From positions 1-17,803 of the forward strand of contig JBDRBU010000104.1 in NCBI GenBank assembly GCA_043822305.1: a stretch of 17,803 nucleotides of DNA, written 5' to 3'. The translations under genes were made by a program, and so were the position numbers. Numbering within the stretch: the stretch's first letter is position 1; each line of letters begins with the position of its first letter. The notes under the pieces are model-generated. The model saw only the letters and a list, made by a program, of their open reading frames with translations. It made no database searches and was not told where the DNA came from. This DNA comes from Candidatus Firestoneibacteriota bacterium. Lineage in GTDB: Bacteria; Oederibacteriota; D2-FULL-39-29; JBDRBU01. Below, in pieces: positions 4,587 through 17,664 of the stretch.

Positions 4587-5379
4587 TGCATTAAGGGAAG
4601 ATATTGGTAAGGGAGATATAACCAGTATAGCGATTATTCCGTGTGATTTAAATATTAAAGCGATTATTGTTGCCAGGGAAAATGGTAAACTTGCCGGACT
4701 AAATATTGCAAAAGAAGTTTTTAAAATTATAGATAAAAAAATAAAGTTTAATTTAAAAGTAAAAGAAGGAAGTTATATAAAATCTGGCCAAGTCTTAGCC
4801 GAGATATTTGGCCAGGCCAGAAGTATATTGTCCTCCGAGAGAGTTGCTTTAAACTTTTTGCAAAGACTGTCCGGCATAACAACTTTAACCGATAAGTTTG
4901 TAAAAAAGATTAAATCTTCTAAAATAAAAATTCTTGATACAAGAAAAACAACGCCAAACCTGCGTCTTTTAGAAAAATATGCTGTTAAAATGGGTGGGGG
5001 ATTTAATCATAGATTTGGACTTTTTGATGGGATGTTAATAAAAGATAATCATATACAGATTGCCGGAGGTATTAATAATGCCATAGAAAAAGCAAGGAAG
5101 AAGTATCCTAAAATGAAAATAGAAGTAGAAGCACAAAGTTTAAAAGAAGTTAAAGAATCTTTAAAAGCTAATTTTAATGTTATCATGCTTGACAATATGA
5201 ATATTCCAGATTTAAGAAAAGCAATAAAGCTAATAAATGGTAAATATAAAATAGAAGTTTCAGGAGGTGTAAGGTTAAACAATATATCAAAAATTTCACA
5301 ATTAAAAATAGATTATATATCAATAGGTGCCTTAACCCATTCAGCAAAAAGTTTAAATATGAGTTTAGATATTAAATAG
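4561..5379 (+). CDS. nadC: Nicotinate-nucleotide pyrophosphorylase (quinolinate phosphoribosyltransferase)
   Basis: ALREDIGKGDITS, ERVALNFLQRLSGI, DTRKTTP, HRFGLFDGMLIKDNH, IMLDNM, EVSGG, ISIGALTHS. Overlaps the valS end by 26 nt. Confidence 0.98.
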   Translation: MGIKQIIHNALREDIGKGDITSIAIIPCDLNIKAIIVARENGKLAGLNIAKEVFKIIDKKIKFNLKVKEGSYIKSGQVLAEIFGQARSILSSERVALNFLQRLSGITTLTDKFVKKIKSSKIKILDTRKTTPNLRLLEKYAVKMGGGFNHRFGLFDGMLIKDNHIQIAGGINNAIEKARKKYPKMKIEVEAQSLKEVKESLKANFNVIMLDNMNIPDLRKAIKLINGKYKIEVSGGVRLNNISKISQLKIDYISIGALTHSAKSLNMSLDIK

Positions 5380-5398
5380 GGACAGACACCCTATTTTT
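5374..5398 (+). repeat. REP-like repeat family B hairpin, possible terminator
   Basis: AAATAGGG-ACAGACA-CCCTATTT(TT): perfect 8-bp stem. Core GGGACAGACACC is identical at 12624-12635, with related reverse copies at 5736 and 6933. Confidence 0.7.
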
Positions 5399-5408
5399 AG
5401 GAGGAAAT

Positions 5409-5693: not shown

Positions 5694-5735
5694 AAGGGGT
5701 CAGAGTCGATTAAATTATCTCTTAGCGAAAAGTAT

Positions 5736-5758
5736 AAAAATGGTCGCTGTCCCTATTT
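5736..5758 (+). repeat. Left copy of a 23-bp direct repeat flanking the nuclease gene (family B, reverse orientation)
   Basis: AAAAATGGTCGCTGTCCCTATTT, 22/23 identical to 6933-6955. Confidence 0.85.
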
Positions 5759-5855: not shown

Positions 5856-6926
5856 ATGGAATTAAATGATTTTGTTAATTCGATCAAAGAAAAAGTTCCA
5901 GGTTTTAAAAGTAAAAATATTAACGAAGGACAAACAAAAGAATGGTTAATAAAACCTTTTTTTGAAGTATTAGGATGGCAATTTTCCAATCCAAATGAAG
6001 TTGTTCCAGAAGATGATGATTCGACCGGAAAAAAACCAGATTTCGGTTTTTATTTCAATGATAGTGTTAAATTTTTTCTAGAAGCAAAATCAATTAATAA
6101 TCCACTTGATGATTTAAGGATGATATCTGAAAAGATAAATTATTGTAATAATGCTAATGTGCCATTTCTAATAATTACAAATGGGATAAATTATAAAATC
6201 TATTATATTGGTTTAAAAGGAAGTGGAAAAGATAAACTTTTACAAGAATTTTCTATATTGGAAGATATAGATGATGAAATTATAATGATGCTAACAAAAG
6301 AGGCTTTTAATGATGATCAATTATATGATTATGCAAAAAGAAAATATATTTTTGTGAATGTCAAAACTGCCCTAGAAAACATTTTTCAAAAACCGCATAA
6401 GAAAATTATTGATAAAATAAACAATGAGATAAGAACAATCTTAGGACATAAATTTGGAGATGATGAAATAAAAGAAGCGTTAAAAAGTTTTAATTTAACC
6501 ATAAATCTTAATATGTTTGAGGAAAACGATAAAAAGGATGATTCGAAAAAACCAGATGAAAACAATATCTATACTATTGAAAATCAATTTAAAAGTGGTA
6601 AATGGGTTAATAGCTATGATTTATATAATAAACTAAAGAAATATTTGAATAAAAACAATATTAGATTTGTAGAAAATCCTACAAAGTCTTATATCGGTAT
6701 ACTTGATAAAGATAATAATTACTTTCAAGTGCATGGTCAAAAATCTGGCTTAAAATTATTTATTAATATTGATTATTCAGAACTCTCTGAACAAGAAAAA
6801 TTAAAAACAAGAGATGTTAGTGAGATCGGTCGCTCGGGAATTGGTAATACAGAGTGTATAATAAAGAATGAAAATGATTTTGATTGGCTTTTAGGAATTA
6901 TTAGAAAAGCATACGATAAAATATAA
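5856..6926 (+). CDS. HsdR_N-like PD-(D/E)xK nuclease fused to a C-terminal DUF5655-like domain (predicted restriction endonuclease)
   Basis: NEGQTKEWLIKPFFEVLGW..EVVPE..KPDFG..FLEAK..IITNG is the HSDR_N pattern. C-terminal PTKSYIG..QKSGLKLFIN..RDVSEIG.SG.GNTECII..IRKAYD is DUF5655-like. RBS AAGGAG. Confidence 0.8.
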   Translation: MELNDFVNSIKEKVPGFKSKNINEGQTKEWLIKPFFEVLGWQFSNPNEVVPEDDDSTGKKPDFGFYFNDSVKFFLEAKSINNPLDDLRMISEKINYCNNANVPFLIITNGINYKIYYIGLKGSGKDKLLQEFSILEDIDDEIIMMLTKEAFNDDQLYDYAKRKYIFVNVKTALENIFQKPHKKIIDKINNEIRTILGHKFGDDEIKEALKSFNLTINLNMFEENDKKDDSKKPDENNIYTIENQFKSGKWVNSYDLYNKLKKYLNKNNIRFVENPTKSYIGILDKDNNYFQVHGQKSGLKLFINIDYSELSEQEKLKTRDVSEIGRSGIGNTECIIKNENDFDWLLGIIRKAYDKI

Positions 6927-6932
6927 CAAATA

Positions 6933-6955
6933 AAAAATGGTCGCTGTCACTATTT
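6933..6955 (+). repeat. Right copy of the 23-bp direct repeat
   Basis: AAAAATGGTCGCTGTCACTATTT, ending 1 nt before the ubiB ATG. Confidence 0.85.
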
Positions 6956-10007: not shown

Positions 10008-10787
10008 ATGATAAAATTAATTAATGTTACAAAAAAATTTGGAGAATTTACAGCAGTTGATAATATCTCTCTTAGTATAAAAAAAGGAGAGATATTTGGA
10101 TTTTTAGGTCCTAATGGAGCAGGTAAGACGACTACTATAAAAATGATGACAGGTTTACTTAAAATAACTTCTGGAAATATTTCAATTGGTGGATATGATC
10201 TTGAAATAAATCCAATAGAAGTAAAAAAAATAATAGGTTTTATTCCCGATAGACCCTATATTTACGATAAATTAACCGGTAAGGAGTTTTTGGAGTTTAT
10301 GGCTGGTATATACAAAGTTGATAAAGTTAAGAGAGACAAAAAGATGGATGAACTTTTTGAGTTATTTGAGTTAAAGGATTGGGCTGATGAACTTATTGAA
10401 AGCTATTCACATGGCATGAAACAAAAGTTAGTCTTATCGGCTAATTTGCTTCATGAACCTAAAGTTTTTATTATTGATGAACCTATGGTGGGATTAGACC
10501 CAAAATCAGCAAGGATAGTTAAAGAGATATTTATCAATCTGGGTAAGTCCGGGATTACTCTTTTTATCTCAACTCATAGTCTTGAGATTGTTGAATCATT
10601 ATGTGATAATATATGTATTATTCAAAAGGGAAGAATTATTGCCAAAGGAACAATATCAGAATTAAGAAAATCAGCAAAAGCAGAAGTGTCTAACCTTGAA
10701 GATTTGTTTTTAAGTTTAACGGGTGCACCGGACACCTATACCATTCGCAGGGCTCAGGTACAGGGCAAGTTTAACAGAAGTGATTAA
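10008..10787 (+). CDS. ABC transporter ATP-binding protein
   Basis: Walker A GPNGAGKTT, signature YSHGMKQK, Walker B IIDEP, H-loop STH. Confidence 0.95.
   Translation: MIKLINVTKKFGEFTAVDNISLSIKKGEIFGFLGPNGAGKTTTIKMMTGLLKITSGNISIGGYDLEINPIEVKKIIGFIPDRPYIYDKLTGKEFLEFMAGIYKVDKVKRDKKMDELFELFELKDWADELIESYSHGMKQKLVLSANLLHEPKVFIIDEPMVGLDPKSARIVKEIFINLGKSGITLFISTHSLEIVESLCDNICIIQKGRIIAKGTISELRKSAKAEVSNLEDLFLSLTGAPDTYTIRRAQVQGKFNRSD
10734..10775 (+). repeat. REP-like repeat family A, copy 2 (inside the ABC ATPase 3' end)
   Basis: ACCTATACCATTCGCAGGGCTCAGGTACAGGGCAAGTTTAAC. Confidence 0.85.
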
Positions 10788-10837: not shown

Positions 10838-10876
10838 AACCCTGTACCATTCGCAAGGCTCAGGCACAGGACAAGT
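10838..10876 (+). repeat. REP-like repeat family A, copy 3
   Basis: AACCCTGTACCATTCGCAAGGCTCAGGCACAGGACAAGT. Confidence 0.85.
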
Positions 10877-10922
10877 ATTATTTGTTACATTATGGAAAGT
10901 CACGGATTGCGGATTACGAATT

Positions 10923-12662: not shown

Positions 12663-13496
12663 ATGAAAAAGATTATCTTTTTAACGCTTGTAATAATGCT
12701 TTTTTCAATATCATCTGTAAGAGCAGAAACAAAGTCAAATAAGTCCTTGAAGATTCTTTTTATCGGCAATAGCCTTACTTTTCATCATAATATTCCAGAC
12801 CTGGTCGGCCAAATCGCTTATTATAAGTTTAAGAAAGCGCAAATAGACGAATATGTGCCGGGAAACACTAATTTCAGAGCCCACTTTGAAAGCAAAGAAT
12901 GCTTGGATATAATAAAAAATAATAAGTATGATGTTGTAGTTCTGCAAAGCGCCAGTTTTGAGCCGATAAGCGGGCCGGAAGGGTTGAAAAAATACGGTAT
13001 CAAACTTCAGGAAAAAATAAAAAAATCAGGAGCAAGGACGGTATTTTTCATGACCTGGGAATACCACGGCATGGCTGATTGGATAAAAGAAACCAAGGAC
13101 GCGGAATTAATTAAATTGGCTGAGAAAGAAATCCCGACAATGTATTCTAAAGTCAGAGATGTGTATATTGACTTAACGAAGGAAACCGGCTCAGAAATAG
13201 CTCCAGTAGGCATGGCGTGGAATATGATAATGAAATCAATGCCGGATCTGATGTTGTATGAAAGTGACAATTCGCATCCATCCGAGAAAGGTTCATTCCT
13301 TAGTGCGATAGTTCTCTACTCTGTCATTTTCGAAGAAGAACCAAAAAACATTCCGTCATCTCTTTATCCGTACAAAAGGGAAAAAGACCAGAGAGCAAAG
13401 AATTATATTATAAATCTTAATTTCAGCGAAAAAATGAAGATGGAACAGATTGCGGCAAAAGCTATTGCAGAAGCGAAGAAAATGCTGAGCAAATAA
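12663..13496 (+). CDS. Secreted SGNH/GDSL hydrolase (DUF4886-like)
   Basis: Start moved to ATG 12663, which follows AGGAGG and begins a signal peptide MKKIIFL..VRA. Motifs ILFIGNSLT, YDVVVLQ, APVGMAW, DNSHPS. Confidence 0.85.
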   Translation: MKKIIFLTLVIMLFSISSVRAETKSNKSLKILFIGNSLTFHHNIPDLVGQIAYYKFKKAQIDEYVPGNTNFRAHFESKECLDIIKNNKYDVVVLQSASFEPISGPEGLKKYGIKLQEKIKKSGARTVFFMTWEYHGMADWIKETKDAELIKLAEKEIPTMYSKVRDVYIDLTKETGSEIAPVGMAWNMIMKSMPDLMLYESDNSHPSEKGSFLSAIVLYSVIFEEEPKNIPSSLYPYKREKDQRAKNYIINLNFSEKMKMEQIAAKAIAEAKKMLSK

Positions 13497-13516
13497 AATC
13501 TATTGGAGCGAGTCTA

Positions 13517-14176
13517 ATGGGGAATGTTGATGTTCTTTCAGCTACAATGCGGTATGAGTATGATGCGTGTGGGAAAGTCCGCAGTGAAACTCCTTCTGGT
13601 GATACCCGCAACAAAAACAAATTCGTAGGTGGATACGGTATCGTAGCCGACGAAGAAGACGGGTTAACCTATATGCGGGCCCGCTACTATGATAGCGAAA
13701 CAGGAAGGTTTATTAGTAGGGATCCGATTGCAGGTGAAATGAAAGAACCACTTACTCTGAATAAATATTTATATTGTCAAAATAATCCAATTAATTATAT
13801 TGACCCAGATGGAAAGTGTAGAAAGAAAACCCAGGAAGCGATAGATAATATGAGGAAAGTAGGTTTAAATAAAATGGCAGATGATCTACAAAATAAATTA
13901 GATAATGGTCAAGTCCATGAAACATCAGGCGAGAGTTATATTGATTCTGAAACTGGAGATATCTATGTGAATGACAAATCCCTTGATAATCCTATATCTG
14001 CAGCAGATGCTTTAGCTCACGAATATTATCATGGAGAAGAGACAAGCAATGGTGGAGGTGCCGTAAGCAATTGGTGGTATGGAGTTGGTGGTGAGACGAA
14101 AGCAAATAACTACGGAAATAATGTTGGACAGGCTATTTATAATCTGCTAACTCCACCTGATAGAAGGGGTAAATAA
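13517..14176 (+). CDS. Orphan RHS repeat-associated core protein with a C-terminal HExxH metallopeptidase-like toxin domain
   Basis: YEYDACG..GLTYMRARYYDSETGRFISRDP..NKYLYCQNNPINYIDPDG (PxxxxDPxG cleavage motif), then ALAHEYYHG..GETKA. GGAG 8 nt upstream. Confidence 0.88.
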   Translation: MGNVDVLSATMRYEYDACGKVRSETPSGDTRNKNKFVGGYGIVADEEDGLTYMRARYYDSETGRFISRDPIAGEMKEPLTLNKYLYCQNNPINYIDPDGKCRKKTQEAIDNMRKVGLNKMADDLQNKLDNGQVHETSGESYIDSETGDIYVNDKSLDNPISAADALAHEYYHGEETSNGGGAVSNWWYGVGGETKANNYGNNVGQAIYNLLTPPDRRGK

Positions 14177-14178
14177 GT

Positions 14179-15123
14179 ATGCATATTGATTTAAGGGGAG
14201 GAATTGTGAAAATCAATGTTAAATTAATTTCTGTTCTAATTTTATTTTCTGTCTTAAATGTTCAGGGTAGTGAGTTTAGAGCGATGGTATTACAACCATT
14301 AATTAATCCATTTAATAAATATTTGGGTATTTATTTCTTGTTTTTTGCTTTTGTTCTTGAATCGTTTTTGTTGTGGAAATATAAATTTAGCAAACTATTG
14401 AATGCTATCATTGTGTCTTTCAGTTCAACTTTACTTTTAGTATTAGTAGTCTTGCTTATGCCAGATTCTCTGTTTAATTATTTAATGATAAACAATCTAA
14501 GAGATTTAAGTAATCCTATTCGTTTTATATTCATTAATTTAGCAATATTCATTTTTATAATAGTAATAAAATATGGTATATATTATTTAAGTGCAAAGAA
14601 AATTCTTAGGTCTATAAAATATTTAGTTTTCACAAATATCTTGATTTATGGATTGGCTTTAATTCTTTTATCTATATTTTATCCAATATATTATTTTGAA
14701 CCTGGATCATTTTCAGAAACAACGTGTAAAGAAAACATGTCGCATATTGCAAAAATCTTAAAAATGTATTCAGTTGAACATAATGGGGAATTACCATCTG
14801 CTGATTCAATTGAGGAAATGAAGTTAAAATTAGAACCATATCGCACCAAAGCAGACTATATTAATACAATTGGCCAGAACATTGTTTTTGATACCCTCTT
14901 TGAATGTCCCATGGAAAGACTCGCAAGAACAAATAAAAAGACATACATCTATTCTATAAAAAAAGAAATGAAAGATAAAAGTTACAATTATTTTTGCAAA
15001 TATTCAGAAGTTGAAATTATGTACTGTGATAGTTCTTTCCACGGAAAATTTAAACCTCTTAAACCTCGAATAACGGGTTTGGATTTTATTGATCTCAAAC
15101 CTCGTGAGCAGAAAATGCGTTAG
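14179..15123 (+). CDS. Multi-TM membrane protein with a C-terminal DUF1559/pilin-head-like segment; putative immunity protein
   Basis: Starts 2 nt after the RHS1 stop (alternative GTG at 14206 after GGGGAGG). About 5 hydrophobic helices, then TCKENMSHIAKILKMYSVEHNGELP..FECP. The immunity role is inferred from position only. Confidence 0.55.
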   Translation: MHIDLRGGIVKINVKLISVLILFSVLNVQGSEFRAMVLQPLINPFNKYLGIYFLFFAFVLESFLLWKYKFSKLLNAIIVSFSSTLLLVLVVLLMPDSLFNYLMINNLRDLSNPIRFIFINLAIFIFIIVIKYGIYYLSAKKILRSIKYLVFTNILIYGLALILLSIFYPIYYFEPGSFSETTCKENMSHIAKILKMYSVEHNGELPSADSIEEMKLKLEPYRTKADYINTIGQNIVFDTLFECPMERLARTNKKTYIYSIKKEMKDKSYNYFCKYSEVEIMYCDSSFHGKFKPLKPRITGLDFIDLKPREQKMR

Positions 15124-15129
15124 TATCGT

Positions 15130-15417
15130 AGCACAAAACGTGATAAGATGTAAATTGGAAGTAACCCAACACCCTACCCAGCACAAATCGGGATAAGCAG
15201 TAAAGCGGAAGTACGAAAATTCGAACAGTTAGAAGGTCAGTAAACATCATAACAAATTAACTACTGCTTGTGAATCCAATCAGAAGTACTCACAGAGGGA
15301 AAATTGGAATAGATTCAAGGAAGTTTGTCTTTAATCTTATGTTGACCCGGCGGAATTACATCAATCTTTACAGCAAAGTTCGTGATAGGCAGTAAAGCGG
15401 AAGTACGAAAATTCGAA
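15130..15417 (+). repeat. Cluster of three ~35-47 bp direct repeats (family C) after RHS module 1
   Basis: 15130-15163 AGCACAAAACGTGATA-AGATG-TAAATTGGAAGTA (degenerate); 15179-15225 CAGCACAAATCGGGATA-AGCAG-TAAAGCGGAAGTACGAAAATTCGAA; 15371-15417 CAGCAAAGTTCGTGATA-GGCAG-TAAAGCGGAAGTACGAAAATTCGAA. Confidence 0.92.
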
Positions 15418-15474
15418 GGTTAATAAAATAAGGGTTTTTAAGGATTTGAAAAGTCTGTTGTAATTGATAAATAC

Positions 15475-15503
15475 TTGTATTTTTAGAAAAATCTATGTAG
15501 AAT
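15475..15503 (+). promoter_or_regulatory. Candidate sigma70 promoter for RHS module 2
   Basis: TTGTAT (15475-80), 17 nt spacer, TAGAAT (15498-503), 10 nt before the ATG at 15514. The AT-rich context raises the chance of a false hit. Confidence 0.4.
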
Positions 15504-15513
15504 AAAGATATCC

Positions 15514-16110
15514 ATGGATTCACTGTTCTTTGAGCTTATGAGTTACGATGCATTTGGGAAAGTGCGATCTGAAACTCCTTCTGGGGATACGAGAAATAAA
15601 AATAAGTTCGTTGGCGGGTATGGGATTATTGATGATTCGGTTGATGATGGGTTGGTTTATATGAGGGCTAGGTATTATGATAGTGAAACGGGAAGGTTTA
15701 TTTCAAGAGACCCATGGACATGGGGGCCAGATGATGAAAGGACAAGGGAACATTTTTATTTTTTTGAATTAATTCAATTAAGTGGAATTCAACAAAGTGA
15801 AAACTTATATAATTATGCGTATAATAATCCTTTAAGATATATTGATAAAAATGGGAAAAACCCGGTGCTCATTATTGAAATAGGTGGGGCTGCAATAGGT
15901 TTATATCTTCTTTTTGCTGAGGTAATACCTGCGATTGTGCACATAAGTGAAGCCAAGGAATTTAAAAAAGATTTAGACGCTAAAGCTTTAGCAGACCAAA
16001 TAAAGAGTCAAGATAGAGAAGGTCAAAAAGAGTTATTGACACCATGCAGAAAGAATATAATAGCTCGTGCTTTTTTAAAAGGATATTTATCAATGAGTGA
16101 TATAAGATAA
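15514..16110 (+). CDS. Orphan RHS repeat-associated core protein with a short unknown C-terminal domain
   Basis: YDAFG..GLVYMRARYYDSETGRFISRDP..NLYNYAYNNPLRYIDKNG, then a hydrophobic helix and a short tail. Confidence 0.85.
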   Translation: MDSLFFELMSYDAFGKVRSETPSGDTRNKNKFVGGYGIIDDSVDDGLVYMRARYYDSETGRFISRDPWTWGPDDERTREHFYFFELIQLSGIQQSENLYNYAYNNPLRYIDKNGKNPVLIIEIGGAAIGLYLLFAEVIPAIVHISEAKEFKKDLDAKALADQIKSQDREGQKELLTPCRKNIIARAFLKGYLSMSDIR

Positions 16111-16203
16111 GCTTAATATTAGGAATATTAGCATGAAATATGGTCAAACGGTTTTTTGAATAAATATATTATGTAGAACGCTAAAATAGTTTAGGAGGTT
16201 TTT

Positions 16204-16647
16204 GTGGAAAGCATATTTATGTCTCAGAAATGGATTTTGGCGGATATTTTACAAGGTCTGGGTAATTTGATTATCGGAAGTGCAATAATACTATTTTATT
16301 TTCATAAAGTACTTAAAAAACAAGGAAGCACAATATTTCTTTTTTCCCTTGGTTTAATTGCTATTTTAAAAGCAGTATCAATATTATACTTTTATGGTAT
16401 TTTAAGAGTTTACTATTTTATCTATGTTCTAAGTATAATGGAATTTGCGTTAGTAATATATTCAATAAAAAAGGGTGACTTGTTTTTTTTAGGAGAGATA
16501 TTTGAAAAGGTACTTAAAAAAACAAGAATAAGAGCAATTAGAATATTATACATTATTTTTATATTATTAAGCGTATTTATAATTATTCTTAATATTATTA
16601 ATATTGTTTATCTTTGGAATAATGGGGCAACTTTACTATCTCATTAA
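16204..16647 (+). CDS. Small 4-TM membrane protein; putative immunity protein for RHS module 2
   Basis: GTG start after AGGAGG. 147 aa with four hydrophobic segments. Directly downstream of RHS2. Confidence 0.55.
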   Translation: MESIFMSQKWILADILQGLGNLIIGSAIILFYFHKVLKKQGSTIFLFSLGLIAILKAVSILYFYGILRVYYFIYVLSIMEFALVIYSIKKGDLFFLGEIFEKVLKKTRIRAIRILYIIFILLSVFIIILNIINIVYLWNNGATLLSH

Positions 16648-16669
16648 ATGATAGTTGATTCATCTTCAC

Positions 16670-16798
16670 CAGCACAAAACGGGATAGACTGTAAAGCGGA
16701 AGTACGAATTTTCGTTAGTTAAAAACCCTAATAAATCAAGTACTCTTTTGAATCCACAGCAAAGTTCGTGATAGACTATAAAGCGGAAGAACAAAATT
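16670..16798 (+). repeat. Pair of family C direct repeats after RHS module 2
   Basis: 16670-16714 CAGCACAAAACGGGATA-GACTG-TAAAGCGGAAGTACGAATTTTCG; 16757-16798 CAGCAAAGTTCGTGATA-GACTA-TAAAGCGGAAGAACAAAATT. Confidence 0.92.
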
Positions 16799-16845
16799 AC
16801 ACTAGCTTAAAAGAACAACAGTTTCTTTTATTATAAAATATTTTG

Positions 16846-17640
16846 TTATATTTCCGGTTCGCTTTTATTCCACCATTCATTAAATGGAGGTTTATTTACA
16901 GTTTTCTTTACTTCACTGAATTGACCTCTTGCTATAGTATCAGTTGATGGCATATTATAAATTTGATTTTTCGAAATAATCCATCTGTCATGAATATCGG
17001 ACTTTAGCTTTCTATCGGCAATAACTCTTAATTCAATCTTTATTCCTTCTATTTTAAGTTCTTCTTTTAAATCCTTATACATCTTTTTAAATCTTTCGTC
17101 TATTTTTTCCGGCAGCATCAATATTCTGATAAGCTTGACATTCTTTGTATTTAGTGACTCCGAAAGAAGATCTAACCCAACTTTTGAAAAATATTTATCT
17201 ACCCAATATATATTCCTTTGGCAAGAACCAATAATATCTCTTATTGTTTTCTTATTTGAATAAGGTTTTCCGGGAGATAATAAAATAGGTTGCTCCTGAT
17301 GCATGACTTGAAAGATTGTTTTAATGTTCTTATCGTGTTTTTCTACTTTTTCCTCAATACTGTTTAATCTGCCAATAACCTCTTTATTTGAATAAACAAA
17401 TCTCCTTATATTAACAAATACTCGCATTATCCCAATATTTACCTGTATAGCTCTTTTACTGTTAAGAACACTTGAAAGCATTGCTACACCCTGTTCTGTA
17501 AAAGCATAAGGTAACGCCCTTCTTAATGTTGTAAGATTTAAAGTCGCAATTTGCGACTTTAAATTATTAACCTCTTTTTTATTTAATTGAAACATGAAAT
17601 CGCTCGGGAAACGGTTTATATTACGCGCAACTGCTTCATT
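16846..17640 (-). pseudogene. 5'-truncated ORF6N-domain DNA-binding protein fused to a PLD-like (HDRW) C-terminal domain
   Basis: The frame extends upstream of Met 17595 as NEAVARNINRFPSDFMFQL..LPYAFTEQGVAMLSSVLNS (ORF6N). An in-frame TGA at 17646-17644 blocks it and the N-terminal part of the domain is missing. C-terminus IYWVDKYF..IHDRWIIS. Confidence 0.75.
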
Positions 17641-17664
17641 CCCTCAAAGCCGAAAGAAATTCCA

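Follow-up and report, generated by a model that had tools for sequence, protein, structure and literature searches.

The closest described relatives of the locus analysed here are orphan-module or C-terminal displacement arrays, which the available text of three reports describes for the orphan Rhs of Salmonella (PMC3967940), for orphan modules of contact-dependent inhibition (CDI) and Rhs systems (PMC3150448) and, as sequential displacement, for Vibrio cholerae (PMC5361080). A second relative is rAID-1 of the Bacteroidales, defined in the accessible part of its description by a XerD-like recombinase at the 5′ end, with 44% identity or more to the reference from B. fragilis, together with two or more co-oriented downstream genes, a GC content of 41% or less and conserved intergenic motifs (bioRxiv 10.1101/471110). 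Within the portions available of the two sources, rAID-1 arrays hold mostly lone immunity genes and their mode of assembly is called unknown (bioRxiv 10.1101/471110; PMC12247911), and the way in which alternative toxin tips and immunity genes come to form arrays is still unclear, as the same portion of PMC12247911 states for Bacteroidales rAID. Here we analyse the entire 17,803-nt contig JBDRBU010000104.1 (C104, hereafter the window) of one metagenome-assembled genome of a Candidatus Firestoneibacteriota bacterium (GCA_043822305.1; 2.15 Mb in 125 contigs, GC of the contigs 26-32%). It carries an array of orphan RHS toxin tips punctuated by a repeat unit of about 47 nt, running from (C)AGCA to TTCG plus 2 nt, that we call R. 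R marks the 3′ end of every toxin-immunity module of one RHS family in this genome. Orphan RHS arrays and the conserved intergenic motifs of rAID-1 are already known; what is new here is an R that stands, in two ordered variants, at each boundary. A narrow literature search, which does not establish absence from print, found no 47-nt two-variant element at toxin-immunity module boundaries.

As in the orphan arrays of rhs, cdiA and T6SS (type VI secretion system) effector-immunity loci, the orphan tips of the window consist of a core stub, a variable C-terminal domain (CT) and an own, presumed immunity gene. Displacement arrays are matched further in that modules are co-oriented, on C61 downstream of the end of a main gene, and that one core is joined to different tips in different genomes. 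Unlike in those arrays, each module here ends in a discrete, non-coding R of 47 nt with two 5′ variants in a fixed order, a and then b, and conservation is higher in R than at synonymous sites of the core stubs. The likeness to rAID-1, as far as the available text on that system goes, lies in a co-oriented, low-GC array of polymorphic-toxin-related modules with a repetitive intergenic sequence, and gene number, GC content and motifs agree with the published definition; R is likened to the rAID-1 motifs by description, not by sequence. On the other hand, and again by what that text covers, the R arrays have no recombinase on their contigs, short or repeat-ended as these are, their modules are composed of a toxin tip plus a partner, and their host belongs to another, small phylum.

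The assembly was scanned with nhmmer, using a profile of the four good window copies and accepting E-values up to 10. This returned nine copies of R on three contigs: five in the window, three on C61 and one on C46 (short names of this kind denote contigs of the same assembly). A tblastn search with the core stubs identified exactly five RHS ends of the R-bearing family and one divergent RHS tip on C45. R lies 3′ of all five modules of the family and nowhere else in the assembly, its nine copies are all oriented like the RHS genes, and the profile scan detects no copy at the divergent C45 module. Outside the window, C61 contains the end of a main RHS gene, small open reading frames (ORFs) and an orphan tip with its partner, and C46 contains an RHS gene end and its partner. 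Calculated from the coordinates, the first R of the five modules starts 5, 22, 38, 70 or 159 nt beyond the last partner ORF; otherwise R copies come after another R unit. An earlier reading of this DNA from its letters alone, hereafter the original prediction, had proposed a genome-wide profile scan and named copies scattered without a link to modules as the outcome that would speak against it; all nine matches flank RHS modules. By contrast, two other repeat families of the window give 43 matches on 30 contigs and 9 matches on 7 contigs. A dispersed repeat of the REP (repetitive extragenic palindromic) or MITE (miniature inverted-repeat transposable element) type is ruled out, since R has nine matches on three contigs, all of them at RHS modules.

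The nine copies align without a single gap. Their 5′ part occurs in two variants: an a-type, CAGCACAAA(T/A)CGG, present in a1 and a2 of the window and in the a copy of C61 (a61), with c0 of the window close to it; and a b-type, CAGCAAAGTTCGT, identical in b1 and b2 of the window, in the b copy of C61 (b61) and in the C46 copy (b46). One further, diverged copy lies on C61 (x61). The rest of R is made of an invariant GATA, a variable centre of 5 nt, the 17-mer TAAAGCGGAAGTACGAA, a variable dinucleotide and TTCG. An a-type copy comes after the partner gene of each orphan tip (3/3) and a b-type copy 87-192 nt later (3/3); the modules of main genes are followed by a b- or x-type copy. As a separate observation, R has CpGs at positions 11, 27, 35 and 43, with CA/CT at positions 19-20, which gives an 8-nt period in a genome of 32% GC. 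It can be read as five loose octamers (WAADNCGR), for example at 15179-15225, a pattern recognised post hoc.

In the window, a repeat search returned R as one family of four direct copies, starting at 15179 (a1), 15371 (b1), 16670 (a2) and 16757 (b2); with the degenerate c0, which begins 5 nt past the stop codon of partner 1, the start-to-start spacings from c0 through b2 are 50, 192, 1299 and 87 nt. The 17-mer, searched with up to three mismatches, gives 4 matches in the window against a mean of 0.04 in 200 dinucleotide-preserving shuffles, none of which reaches 4. The copies, their coordinates, the a-then-b order and the spacings of 192 and 87 nt are all as originally predicted, and so is the restriction of the copies, all on the + strand, to the 3′ side of the two RHS-CT/partner modules. 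Gene calls are ORFs and their translations, and domains were assigned with Pfam. The array comprises four co-oriented genes, in the order orphan tip 1, partner 1, c0, a1, b1, a 96-nt linker, orphan tip 2, partner 2, a2 and b2. Its features, with the basis for each (flank classes are defined below), are the following:

13517..14176, + strand: orphan RHS C-terminal tip 1, a core stub (YEYDACGK...RFISRDP) plus a variable toxin domain (ORF; the core stub matches other RHS ends of the assembly)
14179..15123, + strand: partner gene 1, for a presumed immunity protein, a multi-pass membrane protein of 314 aa (ORF; no Pfam match)
15129..15165 (start 15129/15130), + strand: c0, a degenerate a-type R of which the first ~37 nt are recognisable (nhmmer 14.8 bits, E 0.042)
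15179..15225, + strand: a1, with an a-type 5′ part and centre AGCAG, followed by a class I flank (nhmmer 62.9 bits)
15226..15370, + strand: spacer S1, a class I 3′ flank homologous in part to S2 (flank similarity)
15371..15417, + strand: b1, with a b-type 5′ part and centre GGCAG (nhmmer 64.9 bits)
15418..15513, + strand: class II linker to orphan tip 2, with TTGTAT (15475-15480), a 17-nt spacer and TAGAAT (15498-15503) (comparison with the C61 linker after x61)
15514..16110, + strand: orphan RHS C-terminal tip 2, a core stub from ..SYDAFGK plus a variable CT with a hydrophobic segment (ORF, core-stub comparison)
16204..16647, + strand: partner gene 2, for a presumed immunity protein, a small membrane protein of 147 aa (ORF; no Pfam match)
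16670..16716, + strand: a2, with an a-type 5′ part and centre GACTG, 22 nt past the stop of partner 2 (nhmmer 66.4 bits)
16717..16756, + strand: spacer S2, a class I flank matching the first ~50 nt of S1 (alignment)
16757..16803, + strand: b2, with a b-type 5′ part, centre GACTA and a degenerate 3′ third (nhmmer 56.6 bits; 2 mismatches to the 17-mer)

The immunity function is presumed for partner 1 from gene position only, and for partner 2 from gene position likewise.

R is the sole sequence block common to all copies. Their 60-nt 5′ flanks show no similarity in any of 28 pairs (28/28, z at most 1.4), and their 3′ flanks are similar only inside three classes. Class I comprises the flanks after a1 and a2 (z 8.2; 32/39 aligned columns identical), class II those after b1, x61 and a61 (z 9.0 for b1 with x61 and 7.9 for x61 with a61), and class III those after b61 and b46 (z 24; 98% identical over 101 nt). 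The class II linkers after b1 and x61, which are 74% identical over 98 columns, both run into an orphan tip and have in common TTG(T/C)AT, 17 nt and TA(G/A)AAT just before the tip starts. This promoter-like hexamer pair may serve as a promoter; a scan with the consensus promoter did not list TTGTAT-17-TAGAAT. Behind both linkers the orphan tips have the same core start (..SYDAFGK); their toxin tips and partners are unrelated, and an a-type R then follows. A cassette replaced between two homologous flanks leaves this trace: the same type of R, linker and stub, but other cargo. The arrays can be written as tandem units composed of a b-type R, a linker, a core stub, a tip, a partner, an a-type R and a spacer, and some of the stretches between R copies are empty (13, 40, 117 or 145 nt).

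Copies of R are mutually identical at 31 to 46 of their 47 positions, and 32/47 columns are invariant in the six best copies. Indeed, a1 and a61 agree at 44/47 positions while their flanks are unrelated on both sides. The proteins encoded by the five core stubs are 88-100% identical to the stub of orphan tip 2 over 57 residues before they run into unrelated tips, each with a partner ORF downstream. At the DNA level the stubs are 72-82% identical to one another, with a third-position identity of 41-65% and a synonymous divergence (dS) of 0.97-2.6 or undefined (saturated). Inside class II, R (35/47, or 74%) is no better conserved than the linker (74%), so that the excess conservation of R shows between classes. 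R is either selected for its sequence or kept alike by repeated exchange, and a passive relic is unlikely.

The composition of the copies bears directly on exchange. Their centres are AGCAG/GGCAG in a1/b1, GACTG/GACTA in a2/b2 and AGATG in c0. The original prediction had the centre shared at 4/5 positions within a pair; this holds for both window pairs and fails for the C61 pair, where AGCAG and GACTG agree at 2/5 positions, and the centre is therefore not pair-specific in one of three pairs. There are only two centre haplotypes, (A/G)GCAG and (G/A)ACT(G/A), both common to several loci, and all four pairings of 5′ type (a or b) with centre haplotype (GCAG or ACTG) are found. The prediction that exchange takes place at the repeat thus stands, in that the mosaic make-up of R shows exchange inside R. 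The pair a1 and b1, 192 nt apart, is identical at positions 19-47 and differs at 5 of positions 6-13, with an exact run of 29 nt. The simplest reading of this pattern is a gene conversion confined to the 3′ part that a and b have in common. Such conversion accounts for the agreement of centres within pairs, and matching overlaps are not required. Furthermore, b1 (b with GCAG) and a2 (a with ACTG), which flank the orphan-2 cassette, are the reciprocal combinations of a single a|GCAG × b|ACTG crossover, a pattern that the insertion of a circle and a double crossover fit equally well. A fixed cleavage at GATA was considered and dropped, because the differences between a and b cluster at positions 6-13 and any exchange of the common 3′ part looks the same.

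No copy of R outside this genome was found in searches of genome, metagenome, viral, plasmid and phage collections. An exact 17-mer scan of 596 Gb gave 38 loci in genome contigs and 49 in metagenome contigs, with about 70 matches expected by chance on our own estimate. We regard these 87 loci as chance matches: by the R profile none exceeds 19.6 bits, against 30-66 bits for true copies, and the alignments listed extend barely beyond the 17-mer. Among 60 related genomes, the R pattern with up to three mismatches matched only twice, in unrelated genes, and in 99 genomes of the phylum the RHS core stub found nothing above 57% identity beyond this genome. Viral contigs gave neither a match to the R pattern nor a relative of the outside protein P0095 described below (0 of each), the sole plasmid match was one of 35 nt to AT-rich linker sequence, attributable to chance, and phages had none. 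The RHS family itself is rare by protein search, with one 70%-identical relative among long proteins and a few partial ends among short ones. P0095 (MFH1376195.1) has a C61-type core, identical at 113/117 of the first aligned residues, that passes at RFISRDPI into an orphan-1 family tip, and its CT is related to that of orphan tip 1 (49% identical overall). P0095 is direct evidence that tips have been exchanged between main and orphan positions on this core. The CT of orphan tip 2 is related to that of another outside protein, P0098 (57% identity), and P0098/P0104 (OGF54176.1) carries a tip like that of orphan 2.

We tentatively favour a reading in which R is a homology anchor for recombinational exchange of modules and growth of the array. 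R would then be the conserved boundary element of the tandem unit from which orphan arrays of one RHS toxin family are built. The toxin-immunity cassette would be framed by two shared blocks, the RHS core stub at its 5′ side and R, with what follows it, at its 3′ side. General homologous recombination and gene conversion acting at both blocks would swap, duplicate and delete modules, in a mode that can be likened to C-terminal displacement and orphan arrays. Recurrent exchange would keep the R copies alike, as in concerted evolution, and no dedicated recombinase would be required. This reading builds on the architecture of the arrays, on a linker and stub that recur with different cargo, on the conversion tract, on P0095 with its exchanged tip, and on R having no recombinase-site anatomy. 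From these we infer a 3′ crossover point at R and homologous recombination as the mechanism. Recombination of the RecA type needs a shared run of roughly 20-30 nt at minimum. The longest exact shared runs are 31 nt between R copies and 42 nt between core stubs, and by their length both would lie within the range usable by RecA.

Several observations weigh against a homology anchor. Exact runs between R copies have a median of only 15 nt (range 7-31), which is marginal for homologous recombination. In all eight good copies (8/8), unrelated upstream sequences meet R at the same nucleotide, within 1-2 nt, as a precise joining reaction predicts. The a and b 5′ variants are near-unchanged across loci and keep their fixed order, which homogenisation does not predict. 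R is conserved while neighbouring synonymous sites are saturated, for which conversion by itself is a strained explanation and direct selection a simpler one. Finally, the evidence base is one metagenome-assembled genome.

Direct selection is the substance of a second reading, which we consider rather less probable: R could be a cis-regulatory element kept by selection, with recombination incidental to it. It might be a protein-binding DNA site, made of the ACGAA-NN-TTCG dyad and its neighbours, that lies between modules and ~58 nt upstream of the orphan promoter; or the immunity transcript might contain it, as an unstructured signal, in its 3′ untranslated region. Conservation of R is indeed far higher than the neutral level in the genes next to it, and every module has a copy soon past its last partner gene. 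The only dyads in R are ACGAA-NN-TTCGT at its 3′ end (arms of at least 5 bp in 3/8 copies) and TTCGT-N21-ACGAA (3/8: b1, b61 and b46). The shorter form CGAA-NN-TTCG, present in 7/9 copies, is rare in the genome, with 12 occurrences of which 7 are in R. Moreover, b1 and x61 stand about equally far upstream of TTGYAT-17-TARAAT before orphan tips. Yet these two are the only copies of nine that precede a gene, the others preceding spacers or array ends, and 47 nt is long for one operator. The five dyads found elsewhere are intragenic, part of a tRNA-like stretch or preceded by a hairpin, and they show no regulon, which also disposes of a LexA-box or operator-regulon interpretation of the 3′ dyad. 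The second variant of this reading meets the lack of any consensus RNA structure, terminator or Rfam family. RNAalifold, with RNA energy parameters, gives 0 consensus pairs over the nine copies. No terminator-like site was found in 13300-17000, and Rfam has no match in the window at E up to 1, a comparison that the original prediction had proposed. ARAGORN finds 0 tRNA or tmRNA genes in the window. On present evidence R is rejected as an RNA element, having no Rfam family, no consensus structure and no terminator.

The third reading is close to the one first proposed for these repeats, namely that they are att- or dif-like sites of a cassette system whose recombinase is encoded elsewhere. R would be the attachment or recombination site of a dedicated, integron- or rAID-like system, the recombinase lying outside the assembled contigs, and the enzyme would insert and excise cassettes at R, perhaps crossing over in or beside the invariant GATA. 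In its most explicit form this would be an integron-like system for whole RHS toxin-immunity modules. A circle made of the 3′ part of R, the promoter linker, core stub, toxin tip, immunity gene and the 5′ part of an a-type R would be inserted at a b-type R by a recombinase encoded elsewhere, and that recombinase would have to recognise an asymmetric 47-nt site without a dyad core, unlike known tyrosine or serine enzymes. We think this unlikely, in the explicit form as in the general one. What speaks for it is that unrelated sequence sharply bounds R on either side, that a copy in a single orientation stands at every module boundary, and that the orphan-2 cassette is flanked by the reciprocal hybrids b1 and a2. 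There is also precedent, in the available text on Bacteroidales rAID-1, for a XerD-like recombinase that goes with repetitive intergenic sequences (bioRxiv 10.1101/471110; PMC12247911).

The anatomy of R speaks against this reading. An attC site is an imperfect inverted repeat whose single strand folds up, and the integron integrase gene adjoins the array; Xer dif-type sites have two arms of ~11 nt with partial dyad symmetry around a spacer of 6-8 nt. Like attC and dif/pdif, R is a short single-orientation site that punctuates gene cassettes. Unlike attC, it has no consensus fold (the 0 pairs of RNAalifold) and no long inverted repeats, and no recombinase accompanies it on the window, C61 or C46. 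Unlike dif, it has no dyad arms: neither candidate crossover region, the variable 5 nt or the invariant GATA, has an inverted repeat of at least 5 bp around it (0/8 copies). Nor does R resemble the best dif-like match in the genome, on C95 at about 18875 on the - strand (ACTGCCTATAA GATATA TTATGTTAACT; 1 mismatch to a dif consensus), which is a candidate for chromosome dimer resolution. Against a 28-nt stretch of this site, covering the spacer and right arm only and ~6 nt off register, R gives 12-15 matches against shuffle means of 12.8-14.0. The Xer-type binding arms that had been suspected around the variable 5 nt are therefore not borne out. The centre is unmatched in the C61 pair, the positions at which a and b differ dictate a crossover interval at GATA, which so carries no weight, and several of the supposed cassettes would be the empty stretches of 13, 40, 117 or 145 nt.

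No recombinase gene lies on C104, C61 or C46, the R-bearing contigs, which are short or end in repeats. A recombinase beside the arrays, which the original prediction had proposed to look for, was thus not found there, and Pfam agrees with the statement that the window itself has none. Elsewhere the genome encodes five recombinases, four of the tyrosine and one of the serine type; their settings are housekeeping, island or plasmid-like, and none is near an RHS gene. A XerD-like gene on C119 and a XerC-like gene on C108, beside topA and dprA-like genes, have housekeeping settings. The two non-housekeeping tyrosine recombinases, on C9 an integrase at an island's end and on C94 a short one after restriction-type genes, count in favour of a dedicated system, as does the state of the R-bearing contigs, which are short or broken at repeats and could hide any linkage. 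Scaffolding from contig ends to find neighbours was abandoned, the ends of C104 being a multi-copy insertion sequence (IS) and C61 and C46 ending in RHS or R sequence. A serine-recombinase reading of the 3′ dyad was rejected because the sole serine recombinase lies on the plasmid-like contig C15. CRISPR was likewise rejected, the spacings of 50, 192, 1299 and 87 nt being irregular. Of the att/dif-like proposal there remain a boundary-specific element that is not a dispersed, RNA, tRNA, plasmid or phage sequence, and mosaic exchange within it; its arms and its core-matching rule did not hold up, and its recombinase was not found on the R-bearing contigs.

It is improbable that R is a leftover without function, from the end of a gene or flank that used to adjoin the RHS locus and was copied with each displacement event: one forward frame is indeed open through R in 9/9 copies, and in a2 it forms a 23-codon ORF with its ATG right past the immunity stop codon, but variable columns show no third-position excess, only a2 has a start codon directly past the preceding stop, the relation to the upstream frame varies, no parent gene is present in the genome (the 9 nhmmer matches are the copies themselves), and a neutral relic should decay like the adjacent synonymous sites. 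Most copies of the open frame lack a start codon. Its variable columns fall at codon positions 1/2/3 in the numbers 7, 11 and 5 (best frame 5, 7 and 11, not distinctive), and by coordinates it is in frame with the upstream partner for a2 and b46 and +1 shifted for c0 and a61. A small ORF or recoding signal is rejected on the same grounds, namely few starts, no codon-position signal and an inconsistent relation to the upstream frame. The a2 frame itself (MIVDSSSPAQNGIDCKAEVRIFVS), opened by the ATG directly past the stop of partner 2, runs through R at 16648-16722; other copies have no such start.

Whichever of these readings applies, R is a defined short sequence that can be used for direct tests of recombination or of protein binding. 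If it is a homology anchor and nothing else, it would be a tidy example of how 3′ cassette boundaries are kept exchangeable; if it is true that an enzyme acts on R, it would belong to a new cassette system.

The setting of the array in the window is as follows. By Pfam, the contig carries a housekeeping set, from valS through an ABC transporter pair, and then a DUF4886 gene whose stop is at 13496. The two RHS modules here are both orphan C-terminal tips, and neither the window (Pfam) nor the assembly was found to contain a full-length RHS gene; in the assembly a PF05593 search gave a single match, on C46. C61 and C46 start inside the end of an RHS gene, and the window array instead directly follows DUF4886. 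Orphan tip 1 begins 20 nt past the DUF4886 stop without an R or a linker before it (13497-13560), unlike the other two orphan tips. The window array seems to have been cut or moved on its 5′ side. The toxin domain of tip 1, which has no Pfam match, shares with its outside relative P0095 an HExxH-type motif at residues about 165-175 (AHEYYH vs AHEYIH). From its sequence, this motif suggests a zinc-peptidase-like toxin domain.

At the 3′ side b2 is the last element of the array and is followed by an ORF6N-domain gene (16846-17660, - strand) and an IS end. The ORF6N gene covers only profile positions 44-86 of 86 and has a stop ~20 codons upstream of its ATG; lying beside the insertion sequence, it looks N-terminally truncated. 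About ten other contigs have ends 100% identical to the two ends of C104 (1-141 and 17665-17803), all of them copies of one insertion sequence. The right end of C104 encodes the C-terminus of a transposase, which we take to be ISL3-like. The assembly breaks off at the copies of this insertion sequence.

The two other repeat families of the window are of a different kind. The 44-nt repeat, at 1082-1125, 10732-10775 and 10838-10881, has an 8-bp stem (CCTGTACC / GGTACAGG) and a 14-nt loop, and it accounts for the 9 matches on 7 contigs given above. The other is a 17-nt motif, TAGGGACAGACACC(C/A)TA and variants, whose 43 matches on 30 contigs (up to three mismatches) include C61, where it occurs on both sides of the RHS modules. 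It could form a weak, bulged hairpin and might act like a terminator or bind a protein; its window copies, at 1179-1209, 5373-5399 (inverted), 5728-5758 and 6925-6955, occupy short intergenic gaps.

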